64,000 bases of DNA from Escherichia phage vB_EcoM_G5211, in sequence record MK327947.1. One strand, written 5' to 3'. Below the pieces are notes generated by a model. The model was not told where the DNA came from, did not search any database, and saw only the letters and a list, made by a program, of their open reading frames with translations. Positions 2,574-62,120 of this stretch are shown here, in pieces (within the stretch, counting starts at the first letter, position 1; each line of letters begins with the position of its first letter). The position numbers and the translations under genes were made by a program.

Positions 2574-3302
2574 TTACTTGAGTGTGTGGAATTGGCTATG
2601 TTTAGTCTCTCGCACCTTGACAGACCCATCGCGTTTGATATAATAGATCAGTGACTTGAGGGTGTCGTGTACATACGCGTGCGGGAAACGCTCTGGATAC
2701 TTCTTCCAATCTGGAGTATTAACGATCCAGTCGAAAATCCACCACGGGCAGGAGTAGTAACCACGACCGCCACCGATCAAGCAAATGGTTGGACGGAAGC
2801 CGGTAAGATCGCAAAATGAATCAGTGTCATGTGCTGGGGAACGATGTTCTGCTTCGTCAGATAAAATGTTGGCTACCTGAGATTCCACTTTAACTTCCGG
2901 TACAACCACAATTTCAACTGGTACTGTGTGTGGTTTGGCTTCTTCTACAACTGTAACTGTAACTGTAATTGGTTCTTCTTTTTGTTCTGGTTCTTTCATT
3001 GCTTCAACCAGAGACGGATCAACTTCGTCGAATACTACTTTATCATCTGCGGTATCTGCTGCCAGAATAAGATCGTTAATACTGGTTCCTTCTGCCGGAG
3101 TTTCTTCTTCCATTTCGGATGCCAGTTTAGTTAATTCTGTTTCTACGAACTCGATCATGTTCTCTAGTGATAGCGTCTTTTTGACCTTGATGTCAAATTG
3201 TTTTGCGTAGTCCGCTAATTCTGTTTTAGCGGCTTTCTGTGCTTCTTTGTCGTCGGACGCCGCAATAGCGCGGAGTTCTTCGAAATATTCTTTATCAAAC
3301 AT
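2574..3302 (-). CDS. acidic protein at the position of T4 inh (prohead protease inhibitor); assignment by synteny only
   Basis: 242 aa, AGGAG RBS; sits between hoc and segD-like as inh does in T4. Confidence 0.4.
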   Translation of the reverse strand: MFDKEYFEELRAIAASDDKEAQKAAKTELADYAKQFDIKVKKTLSLENMIEFVETELTKLASEMEEETPAEGTSINDLILAADTADDKVVFDEVDPSLVEAMKEPEQKEEPITVTVTVVEEAKPHTVPVEIVVVPEVKVESQVANILSDEAEHRSPAHDTDSFCDLTGFRPTICLIGGGRGYYSCPWWIFDWIVNTPDWKKYPERFPHAYVHDTLKSLIYYIKRDGSVKVRETKHSQFHTLK

Positions 3303-51009: not shown

Positions 51010-53790
51010 ATGGCAGATTTACAGAGAATCCAATTTAAAAGAACAAGTACGGCAGGTCGCAAGCCGGATGCGAATATTCTAACTCCGGGTGAACTTGCTA
51101 TTAACCTAGCGGATCGAGAACTATATACAAAAGATGACAGCAATAATGTAATTACTTTGGGACACTTTCGCGGTGAGTTGCCATCTGATGCAAATTTAGA
51201 TAATTATGGACCTACTGGTAAATTTACTGGCGTTTGGTCTAAATCAACTTCAACAAATGCGCAGCCAGCAAATAAATTCCCAGAAGAGAATGCTGTAGGT
51301 GTATTAGAAGTATTTGTGGCTGGTCAATTTGCTGGCACTCAGCGTTATACTGTTCGGTCTGGTAACGTTTATATCCGTTCTTTGTCTGCGAAATGGAATG
51401 GCGTAGATGGTCCATGGGGTCCGTGGCGCAATATTCAAACTGGCACACGTCCACTATCAACTACACTAGACTTGAATACTTTAGGTGATGCTTCTCATTT
51501 TGGGTTATGGCGAAATAGTTCAAGTTCCATTGCATCATTTTCTCGAAATTACCCAGAAGAAGGTGGTCTCGCGCAAGGTCTTTTAGAAATTTATGAAGGT
51601 GGTAACTATTCTCGCACGCAACGTTATACTACCCGAATGGGTGTTGTATATGTTCGTTGTCTTGCTGGTGCATGGGATCCAGAAGCTCCGAATTGGGGAC
51701 CGTGGCAACAAGTAGGTATGGTTACTCCCAACACATTCTATGACGGGGATCTTAATAATTTTCGTTCTCCTGGCTTATATAATATTTTAGGCACTGATGC
51801 CGTTATTAACCGTCCAGTTGCAGAAGGTGTTCCGGTTGAGATGACCGGATTGCTTGAGGTTAAACAGCGTGCTTCCGGTGGCGCTATTTTCCAACGTTTC
51901 ACTACCGCAGGAACGGGATCTACTACCCGTGGTCGTGTTTTTGAACGTGCAATGACAAATAATATCTGGGGAAATTGGCATGAAGTATATACATCTTATT
52001 CTCTGCCAATTACTTTGGGTATGGGTGGTATTAAAACTCAATTAGCGGAGCTAGATTGGCAAACATTTGATTTTGTTCCTGGTAGTATGTTTAGCGTTCC
52101 TTTGAACAAAATAAAGAACATGCCAGCAAATATGGATTGGGGTGCGATTGACGGAAACTTGGTTATGTTTTCTGTCGGTCCTAGCGAACACACTAGCACA
52201 GGGCGTACTGTTCAGGTTTGGCGTGGTACTGTATCCCAGACAAACTACCGTTATTTTGTCGTTCGTGTGTTCGGTAATTCTGGAAATAGAACTTGTACAG
52301 TTCGCCGTGTTGTTCTTGAAGACGGATCACATACTTGGACTGCTAAACAAGATTTTAATGGTGCTGTCAACTTTGGTGGTTCGACAACTTTTAAGTCCAC
52401 TACAACTTTTAACACAGAAGTTAAATTCCGTTCATCCAATGCATTTAAAATGTATGGCGGTAATTTTGGCACAATTTTCCGTAATGATGGTGAAAGTCTT
52501 TATATTCTTTCCACCGACGAAAATGATCAAGATGGAAACTTTAATACAAATAGACCTTTCCGCTATCAATTAAAAACTGGCGATGTTACTTTGGGTGGCA
52601 CTAGCGGTGCTAACGCTTTAGTATTAAAAGGCGGTTCTCTTGCTGCTACCTTTAGCGGTGATGTTAATTTAAGTAAAGGTACGCTGACGTTTGAAGCGGG
52701 TGGTAAGCAATCACGCGATTATTTCCGGTTTAATCATTGGGGTGATAGCAATAACGCTCGTGATAACATTATTCAGTTAGAAGATAGTAAAGGCGCTCAT
52801 TTTTCCACTGAACGTACTTTAGCGACTGGTGCAATTAAAACTAAATTCTTTGGTGAAGTTGAATCAACTGGTCGATTGACTATTAAACGTCCGGGTGGTG
52901 CTATTGTATTATCGACTACAGCCAGCAACGCTTTGCATATTCGCGGTGACGTAGACGGGAATGGTAACTGGTATATTGGTAAAGGTGGTGCTGATAATTC
53001 GCTAGCATTTTATAGCTATGCTACTCAGGCGGCAGTACATATAACAAACAATGGTGAGATTGCGTTAAACCCGCAAAATACCTTAATGGTTAACGTTAAC
53101 CGCGATCGTATGTATATCAATGGTGCAAGTTGGGTTGCCAGACAACCAGGTGATTGGGGCAACCAATGGCGAGTAGAAGCTCCATTATTCGTTGATCATG
53201 GTTATGTTGGTCAAGATAGTTATTATCCTATTCTTAAAGCAAGAAGCGTTATAACCAATCAAGGATATAGCACCGCTGTTGACTTTGGTATGCGTCGTAT
53301 TCCATCACAGTGGGGGCAAGCAATCATTCGTGTCGGATCCACGGAGGCTTCTCCTGATGCTGGACACCCACAAGCTGTGTTTGAATTCCATCATGATGGG
53401 TTCTTTTATACACCAGGAAATGGTAGCTTTAGCGATGTGTATATTCGTTCTGACTCCCGTCTTAAGATTAATAAAGAAGAGTTAGAAAACGGAGCACTTG
53501 AAAAAGTATGCCGTCTGAAAGTTTATACTTACGATAAAGTTAAGTCTATTAAAGATCGTAGTGTGATTAAACGTGAAGCTGGTATTATTGCTCAGGATCT
53601 TGAAAAAGAATTGCCGGAAGCTGTATCTAAAGTTGAAGTTGATGGATCTGATGTTCTGACAATTTCTAACTCGGCAGTGAATGCTCTTTTAATTAAGGCT
53701 ATTCAGGAAATGAGTGAAGAAATTAAAGAATTGAAAACTCCTTTCTTTACTAAAATTGCTCGCAAAATTAGTAAATATTTTAAATTCTAA
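51010..53790 (+). CDS. 37: gp37 long tail fiber distal subunit with C-terminal intramolecular chaperone domain
   Basis: N-terminus MADLQRIQFKR..GELAINL..TKDDS like T4 gp37; C-terminal ~113 aa carries SDxRLK ... AGIIAQDLEKELPEAV (peptidase S74-type chaperone signature). Confidence 0.85.
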   Translation: MADLQRIQFKRTSTAGRKPDANILTPGELAINLADRELYTKDDSNNVITLGHFRGELPSDANLDNYGPTGKFTGVWSKSTSTNAQPANKFPEENAVGVLEVFVAGQFAGTQRYTVRSGNVYIRSLSAKWNGVDGPWGPWRNIQTGTRPLSTTLDLNTLGDASHFGLWRNSSSSIASFSRNYPEEGGLAQGLLEIYEGGNYSRTQRYTTRMGVVYVRCLAGAWDPEAPNWGPWQQVGMVTPNTFYDGDLNNFRSPGLYNILGTDAVINRPVAEGVPVEMTGLLEVKQRASGGAIFQRFTTAGTGSTTRGRVFERAMTNNIWGNWHEVYTSYSLPITLGMGGIKTQLAELDWQTFDFVPGSMFSVPLNKIKNMPANMDWGAIDGNLVMFSVGPSEHTSTGRTVQVWRGTVSQTNYRYFVVRVFGNSGNRTCTVRRVVLEDGSHTWTAKQDFNGAVNFGGSTTFKSTTTFNTEVKFRSSNAFKMYGGNFGTIFRNDGESLYILSTDENDQDGNFNTNRPFRYQLKTGDVTLGGTSGANALVLKGGSLAATFSGDVNLSKGTLTFEAGGKQSRDYFRFNHWGDSNNARDNIIQLEDSKGAHFSTERTLATGAIKTKFFGEVESTGRLTIKRPGGAIVLSTTASNALHIRGDVDGNGNWYIGKGGADNSLAFYSYATQAAVHITNNGEIALNPQNTLMVNVNRDRMYINGASWVARQPGDWGNQWRVEAPLFVDHGYVGQDSYYPILKARSVITNQGYSTAVDFGMRRIPSQWGQAIIRVGSTEASPDAGHPQAVFEFHHDGFFYTPGNGSFSDVYIRSDSRLKINKEELENGALEKVCRLKVYTYDKVKSIKDRSVIKREAGIIAQDLEKELPEAVSKVEVDGSDVLTISNSAVNALLIKAIQEMSEEIKELKTPFFTKIARKISKYFKF

Positions 53791-53794
53791 CAAC

Positions 53795-53813
53795 AAGGGG
53801 GCGTTGCCCCCTT
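53795..53813 (+). terminator. hairpin after gene 37
   Basis: AAGGGGGCGTTGCCCCCTT. Confidence 0.5.
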
Positions 53814-53826
53814 TGGAGTATAAATT

Positions 53827-53940
53827 ATGGCAGTAGTTGGTGTTCCTGGTTGGATTGGAAGTTCAGCCGCAAATGAAACAGGACAACGATGGATGAGTCA
53901 AGCGGCTGGTCAATTAAGATTGGTGTTCCTTGCTGGATGA
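53827..53940 (+). other. 38: out-of-frame N-terminal coding segment of gp38 (apparent -1 frameshift)
   Basis: GGAG RBS then ATG 53827 encoding [32 protein letters not shown], ending at TGA 53938; downstream gp38 body is in the -1 frame. Confidence 0.6.
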
Positions 53941-54626
53941 GTCAATTTGCAGGTCGCTCGCGAGAAATTATTCATACTGTAGGAGCAAACCACAATTTTA
54001 ATGGTCAGTGGTTCCGTGATAGATGCTTTGAAGCTGGCGGTGCACCTATTGTATTCAATATTGTTGGTGATATCGTTTCTTATTCTAAAGATGTACCGCT
54101 TTTCTTTATGTATGGTGACACTCCTAACGAATACGTTGTCCTTAATATTCATGGTGGTGTCCATATGTGGGGTCGAGGTGGTAATGGTGGATACACTCAC
54201 TCAGGTGGAGATGGTAACGGTACACAAGGCGGTCATGTTATTCAAAATGATATCGGTGGACGGCTTCGTATTTGGAACTACGGTGTTATAGCTGCTGGCG
54301 GTGGTGGCGGTGGTGGTATTGCATATCGTCCACACTCAGGGGCAAACTGGCAAGATATCGGTGGCGGTGGCGGTCGACCTTTCGGTGGTGCTGGCGGTGG
54401 CGGTTATTCCGGTGGTGCTGCTTCTTATGAAGGTCCGGGTGGTGGTTACAACTATGGTAACGCACACTCCGGCGCGGGTGGTAATGCTGGCGCTGCTGGT
54501 CAGAATGCATGGTCTGATGGCGGTAAAGTTCTTAAAGTTGGTGTTGGTGGTGCTTCTGGTCATGCCGTGTTTGGATCTTCTCCAACTTGGGGCGCTGTAG
54601 GGACAATTTATGGACCTTACATTTAA
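53889..54626 (+). CDS. 38: gp38 receptor-binding adhesin, T2-type (glycine-rich motifs); N-terminus as drawn is probably not native
   Basis: Multiple poly-Gly tracts ([21 protein letters not shown]) separated by variable segments; conserved [13 protein letters not shown]...[15 protein letters not shown] attachment region. Confidence 0.75.
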
Positions 54627-54685
54627 CCGTTAAAAAAGAATTAAGGAAAAATCCCAGGGAAGGGAACTACTAAGGAGAAACGGCT

Positions 54686-54925
54686 ATGGTCTATAATATC
54701 GTCATTGGTGCTTTGTCTAATTTCGGAATGAAATTATTGTCAAAGTTAATTAGTGAAAAGATGCTCACTAAAATTTTCTTCTATTGCGCTCGTCGTCTTG
54801 CGGCTTATACCAATACGCCAATTGATGATCGTTTTGTGGAAGAACTTTATAAGGAGTTTAATAAAGATCAGTCAGAAGATAGTAACGAGCAAGATAAACC
54901 TAGTGATAGTCAACTACCTAAATAA
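54686..54925 (+). CDS. hypothetical protein
   Basis: AAGGAGA RBS; 79 aa. Confidence 0.5.
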   Translation: MVYNIVIGALSNFGMKLLSKLISEKMLTKIFFYCARRLAAYTNTPIDDRFVEELYKEFNKDQSEDSNEQDKPSDSQLPK

Positions 54926-54958
54926 GAGTACACTGTCATAGTTATCTTAGGGCATTAT

Positions 54959-55615
54959 ATGCAAGTTTCTGAAAAAGGGAAAGACTTTGCTATCTCAAAT
55001 GTCCTGCGCGCTATTTTCACAACTAAAAGCACGGAGTTGCTCGTACTTCGTGTTTTTGCTGCCGTCGTGTTGTCCATATTAGCATTTGTCGTTTATAGTA
55101 AAAACGAGTTATTTGCGCTTTATAAAGAGACTCGTTATGAGACTTATGCTCACATTCTCCAGGTAGAGAAAGACCGCAATTTTGATAATGCAGCACAGGA
55201 GCAGTTACAGATAGTTCATGTGTCGGCTGATGCCGATTTTTCTGCTGTTTTTAGTTTTCGTCCGAAAAACCTAAACTATTTTGTTGATTTGGTGGCATAT
55301 GAAGGAAAGTTACCGCATACAATCGATGAAAAAAATTTAGGCGGATTCCCTATCAATAAAACGAGTGAAGAATATCGTAGGCATCTTTTAGGTAAATCAT
55401 ATTTTACCGATAAAGATTTCCAGTATATTCCATCAAGAGAAAAGAAATTAGAGAATATCGATATAGGGTTTATGTATTCTTGCCCTATATTCAATCTCGA
55501 TAATGTCTATTCTGGTAGTATCGCCATTGCATGGAAGAATAAACCGGATATTGACATTGAGAATTTAGATACTCTTTGCAATCAATCTGCCAGAATCCTC
55601 GGAAGGATTAGATAA
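54959..55615 (+). CDS. t: holin T
   Basis: Colinear with T4 holin T (single N-terminal TM, LQIVHxSADADFSAVxSFRPKNLNYFVDxxAYEGKLP, MYSCPxFNLDN, ARILGR). Confidence 0.9.
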   Translation: MQVSEKGKDFAISNVLRAIFTTKSTELLVLRVFAAVVLSILAFVVYSKNELFALYKETRYETYAHILQVEKDRNFDNAAQEQLQIVHVSADADFSAVFSFRPKNLNYFVDLVAYEGKLPHTIDEKNLGGFPINKTSEEYRRHLLGKSYFTDKDFQYIPSREKKLENIDIGFMYSCPIFNLDNVYSGSIAIAWKNKPDIDIENLDTLCNQSARILGRIR

Positions 55616-55620
55616 CTTAA

Positions 55621-55644
55621 AGGGGAAGCCTTTCGGCCTCCCCT
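55621..55644. terminator. bidirectional hairpin after t
   Basis: AGGGGAAGCCTTTCGGCCTCCCCT + CTTTTTATT. Confidence 0.55.
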
Positions 55645-55649
55645 TCTTT

Positions 55650-55898
55650 TTATTGGCGCATAGAAGCCCCTGAATCACATTTTGACGCTGTATGATGAAA
55701 ACAGGTAGCGTACCAGTCATCGGCTTGTTTGTCTTCGTCAGAAAACGCGTAATTGCGTTGTATGCCGTTTTCTACTTTGACCAGTGCAATAGCTGTTTCT
55801 GGAAGATCAATCAATCGGACAAAATCACCATCTTCCCACTCTACACGAGCAATATCATAGCCCATCTCAACGTATACAATCGCTTGTTCTAATTTCAT
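55650..55898 (-). CDS. hypothetical protein
   Basis: ATG overlaps upstream stop (ATGA). Confidence 0.45.
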   Translation of the reverse strand: MKLEQAIVYVEMGYDIARVEWEDGDFVRLIDLPETAIALVKVENGIQRNYAFSDEDKQADDWYATCFHHTASKCDSGASMRQ

Positions 55899-56218
55899 TC
55901 TGGAAACTTCCCGTAAACATTCTCTGCCAGCTTACGTGCATCTTTTACAATATCTTTCATGTAATGACTATAATTTTTAGCTAGATCAATGATACAATCA
56001 ACAAAGAAGTAATAGCGTCGCAGTGCTACCAGCCCAACATCTTCAAGATGACCATTTTCTCCAATCGCTGAAATGTGTTTAAATTCCTTTCGGATCGCGT
56101 CCATCGCTACATTAACTTCTTTTATAATATCTTTAGTATTATATGCACCTCGACTAATCAAAATTTTGGTTAGGTCTTCTGCTTTTTCGTGAAAGTTGTC
56201 AATTTCAAACTCGATCAT
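55895..56218 (-). CDS. hypothetical protein, tandem paralog A
   Basis: Similar to 56333..56665 (shared ...ENVYGKF / ...ENIFGKF C-termini); GAGGTGA RBS. Confidence 0.5.
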   Translation of the reverse strand: MIEFEIDNFHEKAEDLTKILISRGAYNTKDIIKEVNVAMDAIRKEFKHISAIGENGHLEDVGLVALRRYYFFVDCIIDLAKNYSHYMKDIVKDARKLAENVYGKFPE

Positions 56219-56332
56219 AATCACCTCTCATAATTTCACGCTGTTGTTTCAACATTTTTTCGTGGTTTGCTAATTCTATACCTTGTAATAGCATAACCAG
56301 TGCAATTTTCAATGATTCATCATCTTTCATAA

Positions 56333-56665
56333 TCAAAATTTACCGAAAATATTCTCTGTCATAATTCTTGCTTCGTCGATTATTTTCGTCATGTTCATGG
56401 TGTAGTTATGATCATTTAGTGCCTTAATGACAACGAGCAAGGAATCTAAAAACACTCGATACCGTGTATATTCTACGCTATTTGTGAATACCGATGTTTT
56501 CTCTACTTTATCGATCAGATAGCCTAAAACCGATAGCGCCTCGTTGACTTCCCTTGTTACTTTATCGGCGCTAAACAGCACCGGATAAAGACGCGGTGTG
56601 ATTAACCGCGCTGCCTCTTTCAATTCGGTCGCTTTCCATGATTCATATTTGTCATAGTTAAACAT
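56333..56665 (-). CDS. hypothetical protein, tandem paralog B
   Basis: Paralog of 55895..56218. Confidence 0.5.
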   Translation of the reverse strand: MFNYDKYESWKATELKEAARLITPRLYPVLFSADKVTREVNEALSVLGYLIDKVEKTSVFTNSVEYTRYRVFLDSLLVVIKALNDHNYTMNMTKIIDEARIMTENIFGKF

Positions 56666-56677
56666 TGTATAATCTCC

Positions 56678-57010
56678 TTACAGATGAAAACCTGTTACAA
56701 TAACCGCATCGATCATACCGCTAGGAATAAACGGTTCGCCCTCTTTTATTTCAACTTTGAATTGATGCCATTTCGCTAATACTTCTTCCGGTACACCCAG
56801 CGATTCGGCGTCTGCTTTAGTTTCATCCATAATCCAACTAGGCTGCATGAGAGCATAGTTTACATAGTCCATTTCTGGGGTCATGTCATCAATGTTAATA
56901 TATTTGCAGTTGACGCGTTTCAGAATTTCAAATTCTTTATTATCAACCTGTACCATGTATAATTCAGTAGTTTCTGGAATCAGTTCCCACACAATCAGTA
57001 CATTTTTCAT
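56678..57010 (-). CDS. hypothetical protein
   Basis: ORF only. Confidence 0.45.
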   Translation of the reverse strand: MKNVLIVWELIPETTELYMVQVDNKEFEILKRVNCKYINIDDMTPEMDYVNYALMQPSWIMDETKADAESLGVPEEVLAKWHQFKVEIKEGEPFIPSGMIDAVIVTGFHL

Positions 57011-57018
57011 AGTTCACC

Positions 57019-57387
57019 TCACTTAACAAAGATTTTCTTTAATGCTTTCAGGATCGTTGCTTCCGGCGCTTCTTCCGGTGGAGGGAGCAATTCTACCACT
57101 TCCTCTTCCAACTCGATATAGTCTACCAGATATTCTACATAGAATGCAAGTGCTTCCATGAAATTAGATGCTACATCCGATTCACCACACGCGCCTACAT
57201 GCATTGTATAAACATCACTGCGATCAAGTTTGTGGATGCTTCCCAGATAGTTCCGGTTATACCAGACTTCCCACACTTTCAGCTTTCCGGTTTTGGTTGA
57301 TGTTTTATAATCGGTTTCGTAATGATGCAATTGACGTTGCAGATCATTGATAATAACACATTTTTCGTAATTGTTTTGAATTTCCAT
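57019..57387 (-). CDS. hypothetical protein
   Basis: ORF only. Confidence 0.45.
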   Translation of the reverse strand: MEIQNNYEKCVIINDLQRQLHHYETDYKTSTKTGKLKVWEVWYNRNYLGSIHKLDRSDVYTMHVGACGESDVASNFMEALAFYVEYLVDYIELEEEVVELLPPPEEAPEATILKALKKIFVK

Positions 57388-57397
57388 GATGCAATCC

Positions 57398-57589
57398 TCA
57401 CTTATCGTTCAGAAGTTCTAAAACTTTCTGTCGTACTTTGTCAATATTAGTTGATTCAAAAACTGTACGGTATCCCCAGCTTTGACCGTATGAGCGGTTG
57501 CAATCTCCATATCCCCATTGTTCAACCTGATAGTATTCAAGGAATGGATGCTGTCGAACTATGATACCATCGCGATTAAAAATTACCAT
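57398..57589 (-). CDS. hypothetical protein
   Basis: ORF only. Confidence 0.4.
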   Translation of the reverse strand: MVIFNRDGIIVRQHPFLEYYQVEQWGYGDCNRSYGQSWGYRTVFESTNIDKVRQKVLELLNDK

Positions 57590-57612
57590 AATATAATCCT
57601 CACGTCAACAAC

Positions 57613-57900
57613 TTATTTTCGGTTGTGGTCACGATATGTTTTAAAATATCCCTCGTACCACGGTAAAACATCTGGATTTTTACCACTATACAGACCTTTA
57701 ACCATCATGTCAATAAGGCCATCCGGTGTTTGATAGTTTCCAGCTTTTATAAGCTCTCTGATTAAAATCTCTCTGTATATGTCTTTCGGATCTTCGTAAT
57801 CAACTTGTATTGTGGTTGTGGTCTCATTCAATTTGGTTTCTGGAGTATCTCGCATCACATCCCACCAATCTTTTGTGATCTTCATGTTATTGAATTGCAT
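57613..57900 (-). CDS. hypothetical protein
   Basis: ORF only. Confidence 0.45.
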   Translation of the reverse strand: MQFNNMKITKDWWDVMRDTPETKLNETTTTIQVDYEDPKDIYREILIRELIKAGNYQTPDGLIDMMVKGLYSGKNPDVLPWYEGYFKTYRDHNRK

Positions 57901-57911
57901 AATTTAACCTC

Positions 57912-58670
57912 TTACTTGCAAACGTATTGATCTACATCAATTGCGCCACCGAATGTAGGATGACGTTTTTCAAATCTAATAGTTCCGTCGTTTGGTTCGA
58001 AAACGGAGTATTCATATAGATCTTTCTTGCCAACATTCTTATAAAACCCGCCTTTAGTCATAACGGTTTCTTGTACGTTTGCTTTGTGTACGTTGTATTC
58101 GTCAATGTATACAAAATCAACCATCTTCCCATTTTTAATGGTTACTTTAAGATCTCCTGGTTGATTTCCATATTTTGCATACAGTGGCGCTTCTTTAATT
58201 TTTGTGGAAATTCCATCTTTCATACTCCACTCATAACGAACGGTGCATTGATAGGTAAAAGTTTCGACCTTCGGTTCTTCTACCACTTTTGCTTCCTGTT
58301 TCGGTTGTTCTTCTTCAACCTTCGCAGAAGTCTCTGAATCGCTTTCTGACGCGGTTTCTTCTTTAGGTAATACGTTCATCAAGTTTTGGATTTGAGCGTT
58401 GTATACAGCCTCCAGTGGCTGAATCTGCCCGATATTGATCATTGTATCACGAACAGTTTTATTCCAGTTTCGTTGCTCTTGTTTCAGAGACGGATCAATC
58501 TTAACAGCCTTAACATACACCTCATGAAGTTTAGAGTCCAGTGCGGAGATAGACTCATTAGCACAAATAAACTTCTCTGATTTGGTAGTAGCTTTAGCGC
58601 AATCAAAGGACGCAGCGTTAGCACCGAAAGCAGTAGCAGAAAGAACGATAGCAGCGATAATGTTTTTCAT
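57912..58670 (-). CDS. secreted DUF1311 (LprI-like) domain protein
   Basis: Signal peptide MKNIIAAIVLSATAFGANA; FDCAKATTKSEKFICANESISALDSKLHEVY...QRNWNK matches the DUF1311 pattern. Confidence 0.55.
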   Translation of the reverse strand: MKNIIAAIVLSATAFGANAASFDCAKATTKSEKFICANESISALDSKLHEVYVKAVKIDPSLKQEQRNWNKTVRDTMINIGQIQPLEAVYNAQIQNLMNVLPKEETASESDSETSAKVEEEQPKQEAKVVEEPKVETFTYQCTVRYEWSMKDGISTKIKEAPLYAKYGNQPGDLKVTIKNGKMVDFVYIDEYNVHKANVQETVMTKGGFYKNVGKKDLYEYSVFEPNDGTIRFEKRHPTFGGAIDVDQYVCK

Positions 58671-58740
58671 AATATATTCCTCAGTGTTTTGTCTTGATGG
58701 GAGTATCTTACTACTCCCTTAATCCGGTGTCAACTACTTT
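58671..58740 (-). promoter_or_regulatory. early promoter/leader cassette
   Basis: TTGACA 58728-58733; GGGAGTAGTAAGATACTCCC palindrome. Confidence 0.5.
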
Positions 58741-58896
58741 TTAAATTTCTTCTACAGTAAAGTCTTCAATGTTGTTGTGCTCGGCGAACGTTGCCAGACC
58801 AGCATTCCATGCATCATCCTCAGAGAAGAATACACCGTAACGTTCATATCCTTTAGCGCCTTCAAATTTAACCATTAATTTGTGAGTATGTTTCAT
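58741..58896 (-). CDS. hypothetical small protein (51 aa; track ORF extends to 58959)
   Basis: ATG 58896 directly downstream of cassette. Confidence 0.45.
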   Translation of the reverse strand: MKHTHKLMVKFEGAKGYERYGVFFSEDDAWNAGLATFAEHNNIEDFTVEEI

Positions 58897-58962
58897 TTTG
58901 ATTCTCCTTCGTTGTCTTGATGAGTTTAGTATAGGGGATCGCCGATCCCCTGTCAACAACTA
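58897..58962 (-). promoter_or_regulatory. early promoter/leader cassette with GC palindrome
   Basis: TTGACA 58951-58956, GGGGATCGGCGATCCCC, TATACT. Confidence 0.5.
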
Positions 58963-58966
58963 TTTT

Positions 58967-59179
58967 TTAATTTTTACCCGCTCGTGCATTAATACGCATT
59001 TTCTGCATAGCCATGATCTGGCTTACTGCTTCTTCTTTACGTTCTTGCGTGATAACGTGACCAGATTCCGCAAACTCTCCCGCAACTTCTTCTACGATCT
59101 CGCGAATTTGAGAACGTCCAAAGATGCGGTTTCCTTCGTAGCCCATAAACTCGGTTACTACTTGCTCGATAGATTTCAT
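58967..59179 (-). CDS. hypothetical small protein (70 aa)
   Basis: ATG 59179 downstream of cassette. Confidence 0.45.
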   Translation of the reverse strand: MKSIEQVVTEFMGYEGNRIFGRSQIREIVEEVAGEFAESGHVITQERKEEAVSQIMAMQKMRINARAGKN

Positions 59180-59243
59180 GTGATTCTCCTTTCGTTTGGT
59201 ATGGGAGTATGTTACTACTCCCATTTCTTTACGTCAACAACTA
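59180..59243 (-). promoter_or_regulatory. early promoter/leader cassette
   Basis: TTGACG 59232-59237; GGGAGTAGTAACATACTCCC palindrome. Confidence 0.5.
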
Positions 59244-59402
59244 TTTTAAATTATTTTCGACCTTCATCCATTCCGCGTATTCTTGCGCGGCTACTTTCGG
59301 ATTTAGTCCATCTTCGTACATTGCTTCAAGTAATTCTTTGTCGGTGGGCTTATACCCTAGATAAGCCTCCACCTGATTTTTCCAAATTTTATACCAGTTC
59401 AT
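59241..59402 (-). CDS. hypothetical small protein (53 aa)
   Basis: Internal ATG 59402 with GGTGA RBS; track ORF extends to 59471. Confidence 0.4.
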   Translation of the reverse strand: MNWYKIWKNQVEAYLGYKPTDKELLEAMYEDGLNPKVAAQEYAEWMKVENNLK

Positions 59403-59406
59403 ATTA

Positions 59407-59679
59407 TCACCAATCAAGAGCGCGTGTCTCTGCGTCTTCCCATGCTTGACCCATAACAGCCTTGAAAACATATTCTAGAGTATCATCTTTAGAGAATCCG
59501 AAGACCTTAGACGGGATATCTTCAATTGCTACTCCCGCAACTTCTGCATTGCGCGCTTGGCAGTAATGCAACTCTAAGTTATCGAGATAGCGACCGCCTA
59601 ATTTCTCCATATCATCCCAGCATTTCCAGTAACCTACTTTATCTGCAATTGCTAACACTTTGCTGTTTTTGTTGCTCAT
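59407..59679 (-). CDS. hypothetical protein (90 aa)
   Basis: ATG 59679 downstream of cassette. Confidence 0.45.
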   Translation of the reverse strand: MSNKNSKVLAIADKVGYWKCWDDMEKLGGRYLDNLELHYCQARNAEVAGVAIEDIPSKVFGFSKDDTLEYVFKAVMGQAWEDAETRALDW

Positions 59680-59752
59680 CTTTGATTCTCCTTTTGTTTG
59701 GTATGTGTGTATTATGCAATGATGGATTATGGAAGTCAACAACTTTTTAAAA
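59680..59752 (-). promoter_or_regulatory. early promoter/leader cassette
   Basis: TTGACT 59744-59749, CATAAT, GGAGAATC. Confidence 0.5.
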
Positions 59753-59757
59753 TAAAA

Positions 59758-59780
59758 AAGCCGACCACAAGGATCGGCTT
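59758..59780 (-). terminator. hairpin + U-run
   Basis: AAGCCGATCCTTGTGGTCGGCTT + TTTTATTT. Confidence 0.6.
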
Positions 59781-59789
59781 AATAATCAG

Positions 59790-60182
59790 TTACTTACTAA
59801 ATTTCTTTTTGGCTTCGTCTACTGCATGAGATGCCAGTACCGCTGCCGCATGTGCACTTTTATCTGTGTTGCAGAGAACACCCAGATAAACATCACGCCA
59901 AAGTTTAATCATCTCGTAGATCATATCAATATCATTTTCTTGTTTGTTGGTGATGCTATTCGTCGTTATCTGGTAAGGTAACGGCTTAATCTGTACTGGT
60001 TCCGCCATCGGGCTAAACGGTTTCTGATCAGTCATCGGATTAATTGGTGGCGATGTTTTCCATACGCCATTATTCCACGGTTTAACCGTTGTGTCGTAAA
60101 GTTTATAAGGATTTTTGTCTGGGTCAACCATCCATGCATGATGAGTACCCAAACCATTTGAAGTGATGCGTCGTTCAGTCAT
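59790..60182 (-). CDS. hypothetical protein
   Basis: ORF only. Confidence 0.45.
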   Translation of the reverse strand: MTERRITSNGLGTHHAWMVDPDKNPYKLYDTTVKPWNNGVWKTSPPINPMTDQKPFSPMAEPVQIKPLPYQITTNSITNKQENDIDMIYEMIKLWRDVYLGVLCNTDKSAHAAAVLASHAVDEAKKKFSK

Positions 60183-60185
60183 AAT

Positions 60186-60389
60186 TTATTTCCTCTCTGA
60201 AAATTCTTTCATCAAGCTGTCGATCTTTGCTCTGTGTTCTGGCGTGTTTGTCATCTCTGCTAATTTGCTCAGAGATTCACTGGTGATCCGGTTGGATTCT
60301 TCCAGTGTTTCAACGACAATTGGCACAATCTTTTTATTGTTGTACAGAAATGCAATATAACCGCCTTCTGGATATTCTTTCATAATCAA
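60186..60389 (-). CDS. hypothetical small protein
   Basis: ORF only. Confidence 0.4.
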   Translation of the reverse strand: MIMKEYPEGGYIAFLYNNKKIVPIVVETLEESNRITSESLSKLAEMTNTPEHRAKIDSLMKEFSERK

Positions 60390-61765
60390 CCCTTCTTAAG
60401 TTCTTTAAGATCTTTCTTATATTCCTTCATTGCGGTCGTCTTTGTCCAATACTCATATTCACTATGATGTTTCTCGGCATCTTTGACCAGTCGATCATAC
60501 TCTTCTTGAGTAACGCTATACAATGGCATAGAAACTAGCTTATCGGCGTATGGAAGCAGTTTTTCATGTCCATTGATGGATTGTATTACCTCGGCCTTTT
60601 TCTTTCCCTGTAGCTCGATTTCGCCCTTAATTACGCGATCGATAAATTCGGCTTTAGCCATTGCATAATTGTATGCTTCCAGCGTTTCCGCTTGCATCAA
60701 TTCAATGCGTTTATCGACATACCCTAATCGGATTTCGACGAATCGACGGATCAGATCGCTCGCTTTCTCGAATACTTCAACTAAACCACGTTCGTTAACT
60801 ACTACGATATTCTGGGCTACTAACTGTGTTAGTTTAAAATCCTTCATGATTTGCTCATGTCGAGCGGATTCATCTTCGCTTTTGAAATAATCGCGTTTCA
60901 GTGTTACTTCAAATCTGAATCCGTCCTTAGAGCAACGGTCATTATATGAGACAATCAGATCTTTTTCTTCCAGTGCATCCAGTACCGCTACATATTCTTC
61001 ACGGTCGAACTTATAAGGAACTTCTGATATTGTCAGTTTAGTCTTGCCGTTTAGTTCATATGTACCCTCAAGAATCACACCATCGCGATCATCTCGCGGG
61101 ATAACTTTACCCGTGAATTTCGGGAATTGAACACTAGGTTCTTTATCCAGTTTTCCGGCAAGTGCTAGCTCTGTGCATTCAATGAGGCTTTCCAGTGAAT
61201 GCGGTAAAATGTCAGTTTTATACCCTGTAGCAATACCACTAATACCATTAGCCAATACCATTGGCACAACTGGCAAGTAGAACGCTGGCGGGATGTGTTC
61301 CAGATCTTCGTGCTTGGGTGCGCAATTCATATCTTTATAGATTTTAAAGAAGTTTTCATGCACGCGAGCAAAGATATAACGTGCCGCACCTGCTTTCTGG
61401 ACTAAACGCGATCCGAAGTTACCTTGACCGTCAAGCAGTGGAGTATTATTGCTCCATGTATTCGCCATGAGTGATCCGGCTTCTACGGCATTAGTTTCCC
61501 CGTGGTGATAACCCAACTCAGCAACACCAGATCCAATATCTGCCATCTTACGGAATTTCTTACGGTCGCCTTTACTCTTTTGTAAAGCACATTCCATAAC
61601 AAAGCGTTGCACTGGTTTAAGCCCATCCACTAATTGAGGAATCCCGCGTTCCTCGGCAGAATAGATCGCATATTCCTTAGCTTCATTATGTACAATGCTT
61701 TCAAGGCTGCGGTAAGTAAATGTGTTTACAATTTGACTAATTTTATCCATCTTCACCTCATACAC
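60386..61765 (-). CDS. 52: gp52 DNA topoisomerase II medium subunit (GyrA-like)
   Basis: IPQLVDGLKPVQRFV and GxxGIATGY topoisomerase IIA motifs; size ~T4 gp52. Confidence 0.85.
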   Translation of the reverse strand: MYEVKMDKISQIVNTFTYRSLESIVHNEAKEYAIYSAEERGIPQLVDGLKPVQRFVMECALQKSKGDRKKFRKMADIGSGVAELGYHHGETNAVEAGSLMANTWSNNTPLLDGQGNFGSRLVQKAGAARYIFARVHENFFKIYKDMNCAPKHEDLEHIPPAFYLPVVPMVLANGISGIATGYKTDILPHSLESLIECTELALAGKLDKEPSVQFPKFTGKVIPRDDRDGVILEGTYELNGKTKLTISEVPYKFDREEYVAVLDALEEKDLIVSYNDRCSKDGFRFEVTLKRDYFKSEDESARHEQIMKDFKLTQLVAQNIVVVNERGLVEVFEKASDLIRRFVEIRLGYVDKRIELMQAETLEAYNYAMAKAEFIDRVIKGEIELQGKKKAEVIQSINGHEKLLPYADKLVSMPLYSVTQEEYDRLVKDAEKHHSEYEYWTKTTAMKEYKKDLKELKKG

Positions 61766-62120
61766 GCTTACAAATCACATTCTTTACTTTATCAGATTTA
61801 TCAGCCCAATCCAATAGCCATTTTAACGGAAGGATTGACACAATAAACGGGGCAGCAATCAAAGCAAACATGATACACCTGATAATCAGGAAAACGCAAG
61901 TGACAAAACTAGCGATAGTGATCCCGACAAAACAAAATACCATAGAAAACAGAGTAATGATATAGAAAGGCCAGAATACCCACTCCCGCATCTTAACGCC
62001 TTTGTATTCTCTGAATTGCTTAAAATCTACAAACAACTCTCGGATAGACGCGTACAGGACCGAAAAATCATCTTTCATTGCTCTGAATGAGCAATCTTCT
62101 ATTTTAGAATGACCTAGCAT
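61758..62120 (-). CDS. membrane protein
   Basis: Two long hydrophobic segments. Confidence 0.5.
   Translation of the reverse strand: MLGHSKIEDCSFRAMKDDFSVLYASIRELFVDFKQFREYKGVKMREWVFWPFYIITLFSMVFCFVGITIASFVTCVFLIIRCIMFALIAAPFIVSILPLKWLLDWADKSDKVKNVICKRV

Follow-up and report, generated by a model that had tools for sequence, protein, structure and literature searches.

The window analysed here, 64,000 nucleotides of Escherichia phage vB_EcoM_G5211 (MK327947.1), comes from a Krischvirus, an RB49-like relative of T4. Positions 54900-61800 align to RB49 over their full length (100%) at 98.0% nucleotide identity; 56 phage records each cover at least 80% of that segment. Holin gene t and gene 52, the flanks named in an earlier note on this DNA and borne out by their Pfam matches, enclose a 4.7-kb interval of small open reading frames (ORFs), all on the minus strand (leftward). 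The note had counted about 14; the ORFs are there and number 15, mapping one-to-one onto RB49p255-p268 plus p256.1. GC skew flips sign together with the coding strand, at ~55.5 kb. The features are as follows.

54959..55615, plus strand: holin gene t, left boundary (Pfam Phage_holin_T, E 2e-61; 49% identical to T4 t)
55621..55652, unstranded: GC-rich hairpin AGGGGAAGCC-TTTC-GGCCTCCCCT then a T-run, between convergent t and orf1, read from the sequence
55650..55898, minus strand: orf1, 82 aa, acidic, DUF2829/Tad2-like by family membership (Pfam PF11195; phrog_1048)
55895..56218, minus strand: orf2, 107 aa, paralog A (phrog_9457, E 3e-56)
56205..56330, minus strand: orf3, 41-43 aa, annotated in RB49 as RB49p256.1 (phrog_17009)
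56333..56665, minus strand: orf4, 110 aa, paralog B (phrog_9457, E 3e-43; dN/dS 0.04)
56678..57010, minus strand: orf5, 110 aa (phrog_4658; dN/dS 0.02)
57019..57387, minus strand: orf6, 122 aa, T4 Arn.4 homolog (BLASTP 29% over 62 aa, pairwise E 3e-9)
57398..57589, minus strand: orf7, 63 aa (phrog_6957)
57613..57900, minus strand: orf8, 95 aa (phrog_15915)
57912..58670, minus strand: orf9, 252 aa, two-domain, predicted secreted
58741..58896, minus strand: orf10, 51 aa (phrog_19699)
58967..59179, minus strand: orf11, 70 aa, fast-evolving (phrog_14966)
59241..59402, minus strand: orf12, about 53 aa (phrog_8655)
59407..59679, minus strand: orf13, 90 aa (phrog_7287; dN/dS 0.02)
59790..60182, minus strand: orf14, 130 aa (phrog_15644, E 1e-88)
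60186..60383, minus strand: orf15, 65 aa, starting 2 nt past the gene 52 stop (phrog_15105)
60386..61765, minus strand: gene 52, topoisomerase II medium subunit, right boundary (Pfam DNA_topoisoIV, E 1e-68; 51% vs T4 gp52)

The hairpin at 55621..55652 is probably a terminator common to convergent t and orf1; a consensus terminator scanner made no call there. The tandem paralogs described in the earlier note (55895-56218 and 56333-56665) are real, though diverged: orf2 and orf4 share a PHROG family and align by BLASTP at 36% identity across their C-terminal 47 aa (E 8e-8), with 28-29% identity over full length. orf2 is only 50% identical to its ortholog in Shigella phage SSG23, and RB49p115, at another site in the RB49 genome, is distantly paralogous to orf12 (35% over 51 aa, E 1e-4).

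Short ORFs (41-130 aa) without known domains, one of which (orf11) differs from its SSG23 counterpart by 12 non-synonymous changes and 1 synonymous change, might be taken for frames that are open by chance, in a spacer that is decaying or does not code for protein. It is exceedingly improbable that most of them are. Each of the 15 aligns with a PHROG family over its whole length, all lie on a single strand with tight or overlapping junctions, and those tested are kept in about 58 phage genomes. Relative to SSG23, dN/dS is 0.02-0.30 in 12 of the 15, with t and gene 52 at 0.04; the exceptions are orf2 (0.43, from a partial alignment), orf3 (0.45, from 3 substitutions) and orf11 (3.2). By these sequence measures the interval ORFs behave as real genes.

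The earlier note had found no recognisable asiA, arn or motA in the interval, and every search bore this out. At a threshold of E<=0.1, neither the AsiA nor the MotA model of Pfam matched any interval ORF. T4 asiA, asiA.1, arn, arn.1-3, motA and motA.1 returned only noise from the window and the complete RB49 genome (tblastn, phmmer), in runs in which the positive controls t and 52 were recovered at E 1e-67 and E 1e-146. Profiles of our own for AsiA (14 sequences) and MotA (6 sequences), run against six frames of the window and complete RB49, gave best E-values of 0.36 and 0.07, respectively (T4 controls, 3e-45 and 6e-100). Profile searches of the individual ORFs, which the note had proposed, identified none as AsiA, Arn or MotA. 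Genome-wide absence was established on RB49 (98% identity over the interval), this isolate being covered by the 64 kb of the window.

The note had also allowed that these genes were relocated, which would place asiA and motA in the ~100 kb of phage genome beyond the window. This group does move genes: dmd and a gp38-like adhesin are placed differently in RB49 than in T4. Such a move is nevertheless very unlikely here, and is excluded as far as testable, given that the genome-wide homolog search suggested in the note, run on all six frames of complete RB49, was negative by tblastn, phmmer and both profiles, that neither gene is in the RB49 annotation, and that Mot boxes are nowhere enriched in RB49. 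The same annotation lacks arn, gene 42, a-gt and b-gt, and T4 gp42, a-gt and b-gt gave no phmmer match. Arn, the McrBC inhibitor, may be dispensable because this phage lacks the hydroxymethylcytosine pathway, as we infer. RB49-type phages have been described as lacking gene 42, with arn confined to the T-evens and CC31 (PMC2993671, Table 4). AsiA orthologs have been reported for RB69, 44RR, Aeh1 and KVP40, RB49 not being among these, and published searches found neither a motA ortholog nor a middle-promoter consensus in RB49 (PMC1524935). Hence the absence of asiA, motA and arn is correct but ordinary, having already been published for RB49/phi1 (PMC1524935, PMC2993671, PMC2839356); the inference drawn in the earlier note is supported as right but not new.

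Promoter patterns agree with the suggestion that there is no MotA-dependent middle transcription. The Mot-box pattern TGCTTNA-N11-13-TANNNT, a search for which had been proposed, is not enriched in the window (1 found vs 2.9-3.1 expected) or in RB49 (5 in overlapping segments vs ~7.5 as the summed segment expectation), whereas T4 positions 1-50,000 hold 16 vs 4.4 +/- 2.4 expected. In T4, genes 43, 45 and 32 are middle-mode. The RB49 annotation gives genes 43, 45 and 32 early and late promoters, and its record has them paired at genes 45, 62/44 and 32/59. Only two promoter classes are said to have been reported in RB49, by Desplats in 2002.

One of the small ORFs could be an analog that works as AsiA or MotA do, as an anti-sigma factor or transcription co-activator, but without detectable sequence similarity to them, serving a cryptic middle mode. 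Thirteen of the 15 have neither a Pfam domain nor a known homolog, sequence and profile searches would be blind to a structurally unrelated sigma-binding protein among these, and some phages have AsiA without MotA (PMC1524935). The obvious candidate would be orf1, which is acidic, near AsiA in size (82 aa vs 90 aa), and sits beside t, the place of asiA in both T4 and phage PEi20. We consider an analog unlikely. The orf1 family scores an hhalign probability of 0.2% against AsiA, and the orf2/orf4 paralog family also scores 0.2%; orf1 lies above the Pfam cutoff for a different family; the sole MotA-sized ORF, orf9, is a predicted exported protein with a signal peptide; and both the Mot-box counts and the published RB49 searches speak against a middle mode.

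The match of orf1 to PF11195 spans 71/73 profile positions and scores 29.9 bits (cutoff 25; E 8e-7). In 58/60 matching phage records orf1 is at least 95% conserved, and the overlapping features there are annotated as hypothetical only; its DUF2829/Tad2-like identity is new at the annotation level. Tad2 of SPO1, a DUF2829 protein, is an anti-Thoeris sponge for 1''-3' gcADPR, and orf1 is likewise a single-domain protein (82 aa vs 89 aa) (bioRxiv 10.1101/2023.05.01.538930). Pfam family membership may point to a comparable function. Comparison with solved structures, Tad2 chains included, by sequence and by a 5-sequence profile revealed no detectable similarity, and the structure model (pLDDT 45) was not usable. 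Among 1.8 billion representatives, the orf1 subfamily has just 4 related clusters of full length plus one fragment, which makes it very narrow.

The earlier note had called the ORFs unrelated to those of the T4 interval, which stands for 14 of them but not for orf6. The latter matches T4 Arn.4 in an extended 110-aa reading frame (six-frame match, E 7e-6), and the annotation note of RB49p259 cites the same T4 protein. With the annotated 68-aa T4 arn.4 as query, tblastn and phmmer returned only noise in the window and RB49. The T4 gene looks too short at its annotated start, an observation new at the annotation level. As orf6 is an Arn.4 homolog, and the sole gene common to this interval and the T4 t-52 interval, the two intervals are related to that extent.

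The secreted DUF1311 protein of the earlier note, orf9, hits the LprI model of Pfam (25.8 bits, cutoff 22; E 1.4e-5) behind a Sec-type signal peptide, MKNIIAAIVLSATAFGANA/AS, identified by eye. A helical DUF1311/LprI domain follows, joined by an acidic, disordered linker to a beta-barrel at the C-terminus, which is flanked by Cys142 and Cys251. The N-terminal module is near-invariant, and the barrel is swappable and hypervariable (14-41% identity). The family is found also in rare E. coli chromosomes; this occurrence and the modular pattern are new at the annotation level. LprI of Mycobacterium tuberculosis, a lysozyme inhibitor, combines DUF1311 (family PF07007) with a MliC domain. The hypervariable C-terminal domain of orf9 would be unexpected in a conserved inhibitor of one enzyme, and there was no Pfam MliC or PliC match to orf9. 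Unrelated barrels (Cap15, lipocalins, FABPs and outer-membrane barrels) scored equally well or better. Any function assigned to orf9 would follow from Pfam family membership and fold.

Four cassettes at 58.67-59.79 kb share the motif AAAATAGTTGTTGAC and have the published anatomy of the PeSL (promoter-early/stem-loop) element, a type defined by Arbiol et al. (2010): an AT-rich stretch, -35 box, stem-loop, -10 box, ribosome-binding site and ATG (PMC2839356). They are listed here.

58671..58740, minus strand: PeSL cassette of orf9, -35 TTGACA, hairpin GGGAGTAGTAAGATACTCCC over -10 TAAGAT, then a ribosome-binding site
58897..58966, minus strand: PeSL cassette of orf10, TTGACA, GGGGATCGGCGATCCCC, TATACT (promoter match 11/12)
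59180..59240, minus strand: PeSL cassette of orf11, TTGACG, hairpin ATGGGAGTAGTAACATACTCCCAT over the -10 box
59680..59789, minus strand: intrinsic terminator (hairpin 59758-59780 plus T-run), then the orf13 PeSL promoter TTGACT-17-CATAAT

The orf11 cassette hairpin is 95% identical to that upstream of orf9, and its promoter is a 9/12 sigma-70 site. All four of the best sigma-70 matches in the interval (10-11/12) are minus-strand sites; three lie directly upstream of ORF starts, with stem-loops, and the fourth (TTGACA-17-TATAGT, 57713-57685) lies inside orf8, upstream of orf7. Promoter-like sites overall are not above chance (18 vs a shuffle expectation of 21.9), and the promoter assignments therefore depend on where the sites lie, on their strand and hairpins, and on the PeSL element as published.

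Taken together, the t-52 stretch is very probably a Krischvirus hyperplastic early region in which asiA, motA and arn are absent, not diverged or moved. Promoter, terminator and spacing patterns suggest that unmodified host sigma-70 RNA polymerase would transcribe its fifteen leftward accessory genes by three routes. Read-through from gene 52 would reach orf15 and orf14 and be halted by the terminator at 59758-59780, which closes this unit; the four PeSL cassettes would drive orf13-12, orf11, orf10 and orf9; and the closely spaced genes from orf9 through orf1 would form a run ending at the hairpin shared with t. The lineage would do without the MotA/AsiA sigma-appropriation step and Mot-box promoters. 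The cargo may consist of exchangeable host-interaction genes, including the Tad2-like protein, the polymorphic secreted DUF1311 and beta-barrel protein, the diverged paralog pair and the Arn.4 homolog.

The locus was earlier called a second variable early region, and within the genus it does vary, mainly at about 58.75-59.7 kb: alignment with SSG23 and kaaroe is interrupted only there, and orf10 has no match in kaaroe. The variable regions of RB49/phi1 are built from PeSL cassettes, and the phi1-specific ORF263.1, within the numbering of the t-52 region, maps to the sub-region variable here (PMC2839356). Recombination between PeSL repeats, a mechanism taken from the literature, could explain why the cassette sub-region differs among close relatives. 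The interval resembles the hyperplastic t-52 region of RB49/phi1/JSE (98% nucleotide identity, with all 15 ORFs shared and their order unchanged), with only allelic differences from RB49 (orf11-15 proteins 93-96% identical). The distal tail-fibre and adhesin module just upstream (51137-54633) is not homologous to that of RB49.

Like the T4 t-asiA-arn-motA-52 region, the locus has t and gene 52 as flanks, leftward early units, a convergent junction at t and an Arn.4 homolog; unlike it, it has 14 other ORFs in place of asiA, asiA.1, arn, arn.1-3, motA and motA.1, and no Mot-box promoters. Acinetobacter phage Konradin has a minimal form of the T4 arrangement, 52-motA-asiA-t.

Over positions 54900-61800, the window matches phage RB49 (NC_005066, 154913-161818) at 98.0% nucleotide identity along the full length, and at least 80% of the same stretch is covered by 56 phage records, nearly all named Escherichia, Shigella or Krischvirus. 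This match and the names of the relatives mark the phage as RB49-like and as belonging to the genus Krischvirus. Between holin gene t (54959-55615, plus strand) and gene 52 (60386-61765, minus strand), the ORF listing has 15 ORFs on the minus strand (orf1 to orf15, numbered from the t side), which encode 41-252 aa each and abut closely or overlap, and the switch of coding strand at about 55.5 kb coincides with a change of sign in GC skew. The same stretch of the RB49 record carries holin t, the hypothetical proteins RB49p255-p268 plus p256.1, and gene 52. All 15 ORFs match PHROG families end to end, every one of these families being of unknown function, and dN/dS against Shigella phage SSG23 lies at 0.02-0.30 in 12 of them (0.04 for both t and gene 52). 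Because of these family matches and low ratios, the interval ORFs are genes rather than chance frames. Higher values were obtained for orf2 (0.43, from a partial alignment) and orf3 (0.45, from three substitutions only). NCBIfam returned no meaningful match for the 10 interval ORFs searched. The substitution pattern of orf11 (58967-59179) is unlike that of its neighbours, albeit on small counts: 12 non-synonymous changes to 1 synonymous against SSG23, and 5 to 2 against kaaroe. This pattern suggests relaxed or positive selection.

In T4, the counterpart of this interval reads t-asiA-arn-motA-52, and the earlier note had recognised no AsiA-, MotA- or Arn-like ORF here. That observation holds in Pfam, tblastn, phmmer, profile and hhalign searches alike. 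No interval ORF matched the Pfam models of AsiA (PF09010) or MotA (PF09114, PF09158) at E ≤ 0.1. The window and the complete RB49 genome were searched by tblastn with the T4 proteins from t through denB.1; t (E 8e-67) and 52 (E 4e-146) alone were matched, and asiA, arn and motA reached E-values no better than 0.54, 1.8 and 0.11, respectively. The phmmer results agreed, with no match to T4 Arn in the window or RB49. A homology search with T4 AsiA recovered close relatives alone, none of them below 59% identity, and diverse AsiA sequences were therefore added from phage records, yielding a 14-sequence profile spanning T4 to Aeromonas phage 44RR2.8t, Serratia phage Muldoon, Cronobacter phage LPCS28, Acinetobacter phage Konradin and Edwardsiella phage PEi20. 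This profile was run with filters off against all stop-to-stop frames of 30 aa or more throughout the six frames of the window and RB49. The best frame reached E 0.36 and lies within a baseplate gene, while the T4 asiA control scored E 3e-45; for a MotA profile built from six diverse phages, the best RB49 or window frame was antisense (E 0.07), against E 6e-100 for the T4 motA control. In a Pfam scan of 220 RB49 ORFs, no strong AsiA or MotA match (E below about 1e-15) was found among the best 25 of about 60 families per scan. The numbers of phage records with a tblastn match were 1169 for AsiA and 1143 for MotA; both genes are easily found where they are present. The absence of asiA, motA and arn is thus demonstrated genome-wide, as far as homology can reveal it, for RB49, which is the window's 98.0% match over 54900-61800. 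Relocation of asiA and motA, offered in the earlier note as an alternative to their loss, is contradicted by the tblastn and profile searches across the complete RB49 genome. Finally, hhalign of AsiA against the orf1 family and against the family of the paralogs orf2 and orf4 gave a probability of 0.2% in each case; that an unannotated ORF of the interval encodes a sigma-binding protein unrelated to AsiA seems to us improbable.

The other proposal, that MotA-dependent middle transcription does not operate in this phage, is supported by these negative profiles and by the promoter search that the earlier note had suggested. The Mot-box pattern TGCTTNA-N11-13-TANNNT occurred once in the 64-kb window (2.9-3.1 expected) and five times in overlapping RB49 segments, for which the segment expectations sum to about 7.5. 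In positions 1-50,000 of T4, used as a positive control, it occurred 16 times against an expectation of 4.4 +/- 2.4. Since T4 is enriched for Mot boxes, the test works and the signal is absent from the window and RB49. Genes 45, 62/44 and 32/59 are middle-mode genes in T4, and in the RB49 record all of them carry annotated early promoters paired with late ones. Desplats and colleagues are reported to have found, in 2002, no more than two temporal classes of promoter in RB49. As for Arn, this protein shields DNA containing non-glucosylated hydroxymethylcytosine from McrBC, and would presumably be of no use to a phage with ordinary cytosine. The RB49 annotation contains neither gene 42 (dCMP hydroxymethylase) nor a glucosyltransferase, and T4 gp42 and glucosyltransferase proteins had no phmmer match in RB49.

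These conclusions have all been published before. A motA ortholog and a middle-promoter consensus were sought in RB49 and the attempts failed, and AsiA orthologs were given for RB69, 44RR, Aeh1 and KVP40, with RB49 not among these (Nolan et al., 2006; PMC1524935). In a later comparison, RB49-type phages are without gene 42, and arn is confined to the T-evens and CC31 (Petrov et al., 2010, Table 4; PMC2993671). Since 2002-2010, the literature has described RB49-type phages as conducting a T4-like infection without sigma appropriation by MotA and AsiA and without Arn, while keeping a variable region built of cassettes between t and 52. The observation is confirmed and its interpretation supported, and the finding is an ordinary one because both restate known RB49-type biology. 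The confirmation itself adds nothing new, although a real lineage-specific difference was recognised from sequence alone. Of modest value are three leads at the level of annotation: a Tad2-like orf1, the architecture and E. coli kinship of orf9, and the start of T4 arn.4.

The cassettes of the variable region resemble promoter-early stem-loops (PeSLs), for which the criterion is an intergenic AT-rich sequence with sigma-70 -35 and -10 boxes, a nearby stem-loop, and a ribosome-binding site with start codon, repeated in a variable region (Arbiol et al., 2010). On the minus strand, orf15 begins 2 nt after gene 52 and is followed by orf14 and then by a strong hairpin with a T-run (59780-59758). 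Four elements were found:

58671-58740, minus strand, predicted PeSL cassette driving orf9
58897-58966, minus strand, predicted PeSL cassette driving orf10
59180-59240, minus strand, predicted PeSL cassette driving orf11
59680-59789, minus strand, predicted PeSL cassette driving orf13-12

The four have hairpins, 9-11 of 12 promoter matches, and a common motif, AAAATAGTTGTTGAC, that contains the -35 box. In each, an AT-rich stretch and a stem-loop, placed between the promoter hexamers or over them, are combined with a -10 box, a ribosome-binding site of the AAGGAG type and a start codon, and in this anatomy they match the PeSLs defined by Arbiol et al. (2010). In RB49 and phi1, PeSLs are reported to be strong promoters, terminators and recombination sites that shuffle orphan genes; promoter and terminator activity, as well as mini-circle formation by recombination, were established experimentally for other PeSLs of those two phages, and a phi1-specific ORF263.1 was listed whose number falls within the t-52 region (Arbiol et al., 2010; PMC2839356). 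The run of genes from orf9 to orf1 is tightly packed with no further cassettes and ends at a GC-rich hairpin common to the convergent t. SSG23 and kaaroe are colinear with the window except at about 58.75-59.7 kb, where cassettes have been added, lost or replaced, consistent with the described shuffling. The early-type cassettes and the second variable early region reported in the earlier note are accordingly both there, and both had already been described (PMC2839356). A motif, AAATAAGTTGTTGAC, lies at 57597-57618 with its -35 box in the 23-nt gap before orf7, where there is no space for a -10 box; it looks like the remnant of a fifth PeSL.

Two of the small ORFs, orf2 (55895-56218) and orf4 (56333-56665), had been called a tandem paralog pair, and BLASTP bears this out (36% identity in a C-terminal stretch of 47 residues, E 8e-8). 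Along their full length, the two are 28-29% identical and have motifs in common, and both belong to phrog_9457; the duplication is real but old. The SSG23 ortholog of orf2 (997-1311 of the SSG23 sequence L010) is only 50% identical, and orf4 is nearly identical to its own SSG23 ortholog; the copies have been evolving asymmetrically since the duplication.

The description of the interval as about 14 unrelated small ORFs, with 15 counted here, was wrong in the word "unrelated" for orf6 (57019-57387, RB49p259), which has a T4 counterpart in the following frame:

T4 162627-162959 (2828-3160 of the T4 piece L002), minus strand, extended arn.4 frame of 110 aa

Pairwise comparison with this frame gave 29% identity over 62 residues (E 3e-9), and the two products have the motif W[ED][IV]WY..YLG[ST]I in common. 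Thus orf6 is an Arn.4-family homolog, syntenic between t and 52. The annotated T4 Arn.4 (NP_049872.2) has only 68 aa and gave a tblastn E-value of 6.8 against the window and RB49; the 110-aa frame starts further upstream and is the older "12.8 kDa protein in the asiA-motA region". A doubt over the note in the RB49 record that likens p259 to the T4 "12.8 kDa" protein was dropped, given the match to the extended frame. Since the conserved motif lies upstream of the annotated start, the current T4 arn.4 model seems to be too short; the gene probably starts earlier than annotated and corresponds to the 110-aa frame. By tblastn, orf6 is confined to Krischvirus, except for one weak match in a Citrobacter phage.

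The slot adjoining t, held by asiA in T4 and PEi20, is filled here by orf1 (55650-55898). Its product matches Pfam PF11195, "Tad2-like" (DUF2829), over profile positions 1-71 of 73 (E 8.3e-7; 29.9 bits, cutoff 25), which makes it a candidate member of that family. Tad2, a phage protein of 89 aa, counters Thoeris defence through sequestration of 1''-3' gcADPR; activity was seen in four of five homologs tested (bioRxiv 10.1101/2023.05.01.538930). Among 60 tblastn matches, 58 Krischvirus-type records conserve orf1 at 95% identity or more, and every feature that it overlaps there is annotated as hypothetical; the Tad2-like assignment is a lead for a gene hitherto hypothetical in these records. Searches of the PDB by phmmer with the single sequence and with a 5-sequence profile gave nothing at E ≤ 10, leaving orf1 with no direct link to a characterised Tad2, and a single-sequence AlphaFold2 model was unusable (pLDDT 45). 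Among 1.8 billion representatives, relatives comprised four full-length clusters and one fragment (8 matches in all). Three long matches in multiple stretches were taken as spurious; for P0016, the sole one checked, all PDB matches were proteins with fibronectin-III repeats.

The secreted DUF1311 protein of the earlier note is orf9 (57912-58670, 252 aa), in which a typical predicted Sec signal peptide precedes a match above cutoff to Pfam LprI/DUF1311 (PF07007) with the helical DUF1311 fold. Among 15 homologs, identity is 88-100% over residues 1-103 (signal peptide, DUF1311 and linker) and drops to 14-41% in the C-terminal beta-barrel, which two cysteines bracket. Roughly 44 Krischvirus records carry the full-length allele at 95% identity or more, and about 12 others, phi1, GEC-3S, MIZ3 and UPWr_E1 among them, have an overall identity of only 60-80%, as would fit a different C-terminal domain. 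Over its first 377 nt, which encode the signal peptide, DUF1311 and some of the linker, orf9 is 94-96.5% identical to a gene found on the chromosome in 26 of 5426 complete E. coli genomes, with DNA homology ending at about codon 124:

E. coli CP035865, 7995-8795 of the piece L008, chromosomal homolog of orf9

In one of these genomes, the gene is flanked on one side by hicAB and on the other by a stretch that includes an IS element together with a gene of the phage pRha family. The lead provided by orf9 is this constant-N, variable-C architecture in a family that also occurs in rare E. coli chromosomes. Support for a true MliC-type lysozyme inhibitor went no further than a generic barrel fold. 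Our guess is that orf9 is a periplasmic binder under diversifying selection. A broader reading, which we regard as unlikely, is that the locus holding asiA, arn and motA in T4 forms in Krischvirus a small island for anti-defence and exclusion, with orf1 as a working sponge of Tad2 type for Thoeris or CBASS signalling nucleotides and orf9 as a member of a polymorphic exported family with swapped disulfide-bracketed barrels, acting as a periplasmic binder or inhibitor. If so, orf9, itself under diversifying selection, could target the peptidoglycan hydrolases of rival phages, for example; orf1 would be a Tad2-type sponge in a T4-like coliphage, and the orf9 family one previously undescribed.

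In Acinetobacter phage Konradin, by comparison, the whole interval consists of 52-motA-asiA-t only (Konradin-v2 130490-131515). This arrangement could be the minimal and perhaps the ancestral one, with T4 having expanded it and Krischvirus having replaced it. Outside the interval, window positions 51137-54633 encode a gp37-like protein of 926 aa that carries a Peptidase_S74 chaperone domain at its C-terminus, and then a gp38 adhesin of T2 type (Pfam GP38, E 1e-65). The distal tail fibre of RB49 differs: these window positions mostly lack nucleotide homology to RB49 p251, with two patches of 74-79% identity, and the gp38-like gene of RB49 lies about 110 kb away, whereas in the window gp38 directly follows the gp37-like gene. 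Lastly, the Pfam matches listed for RB49 ORFs include Acb1, an anti-CBASS protein (E 1.5e-51), and a protein with a GmrSD_N domain (E 6e-20).
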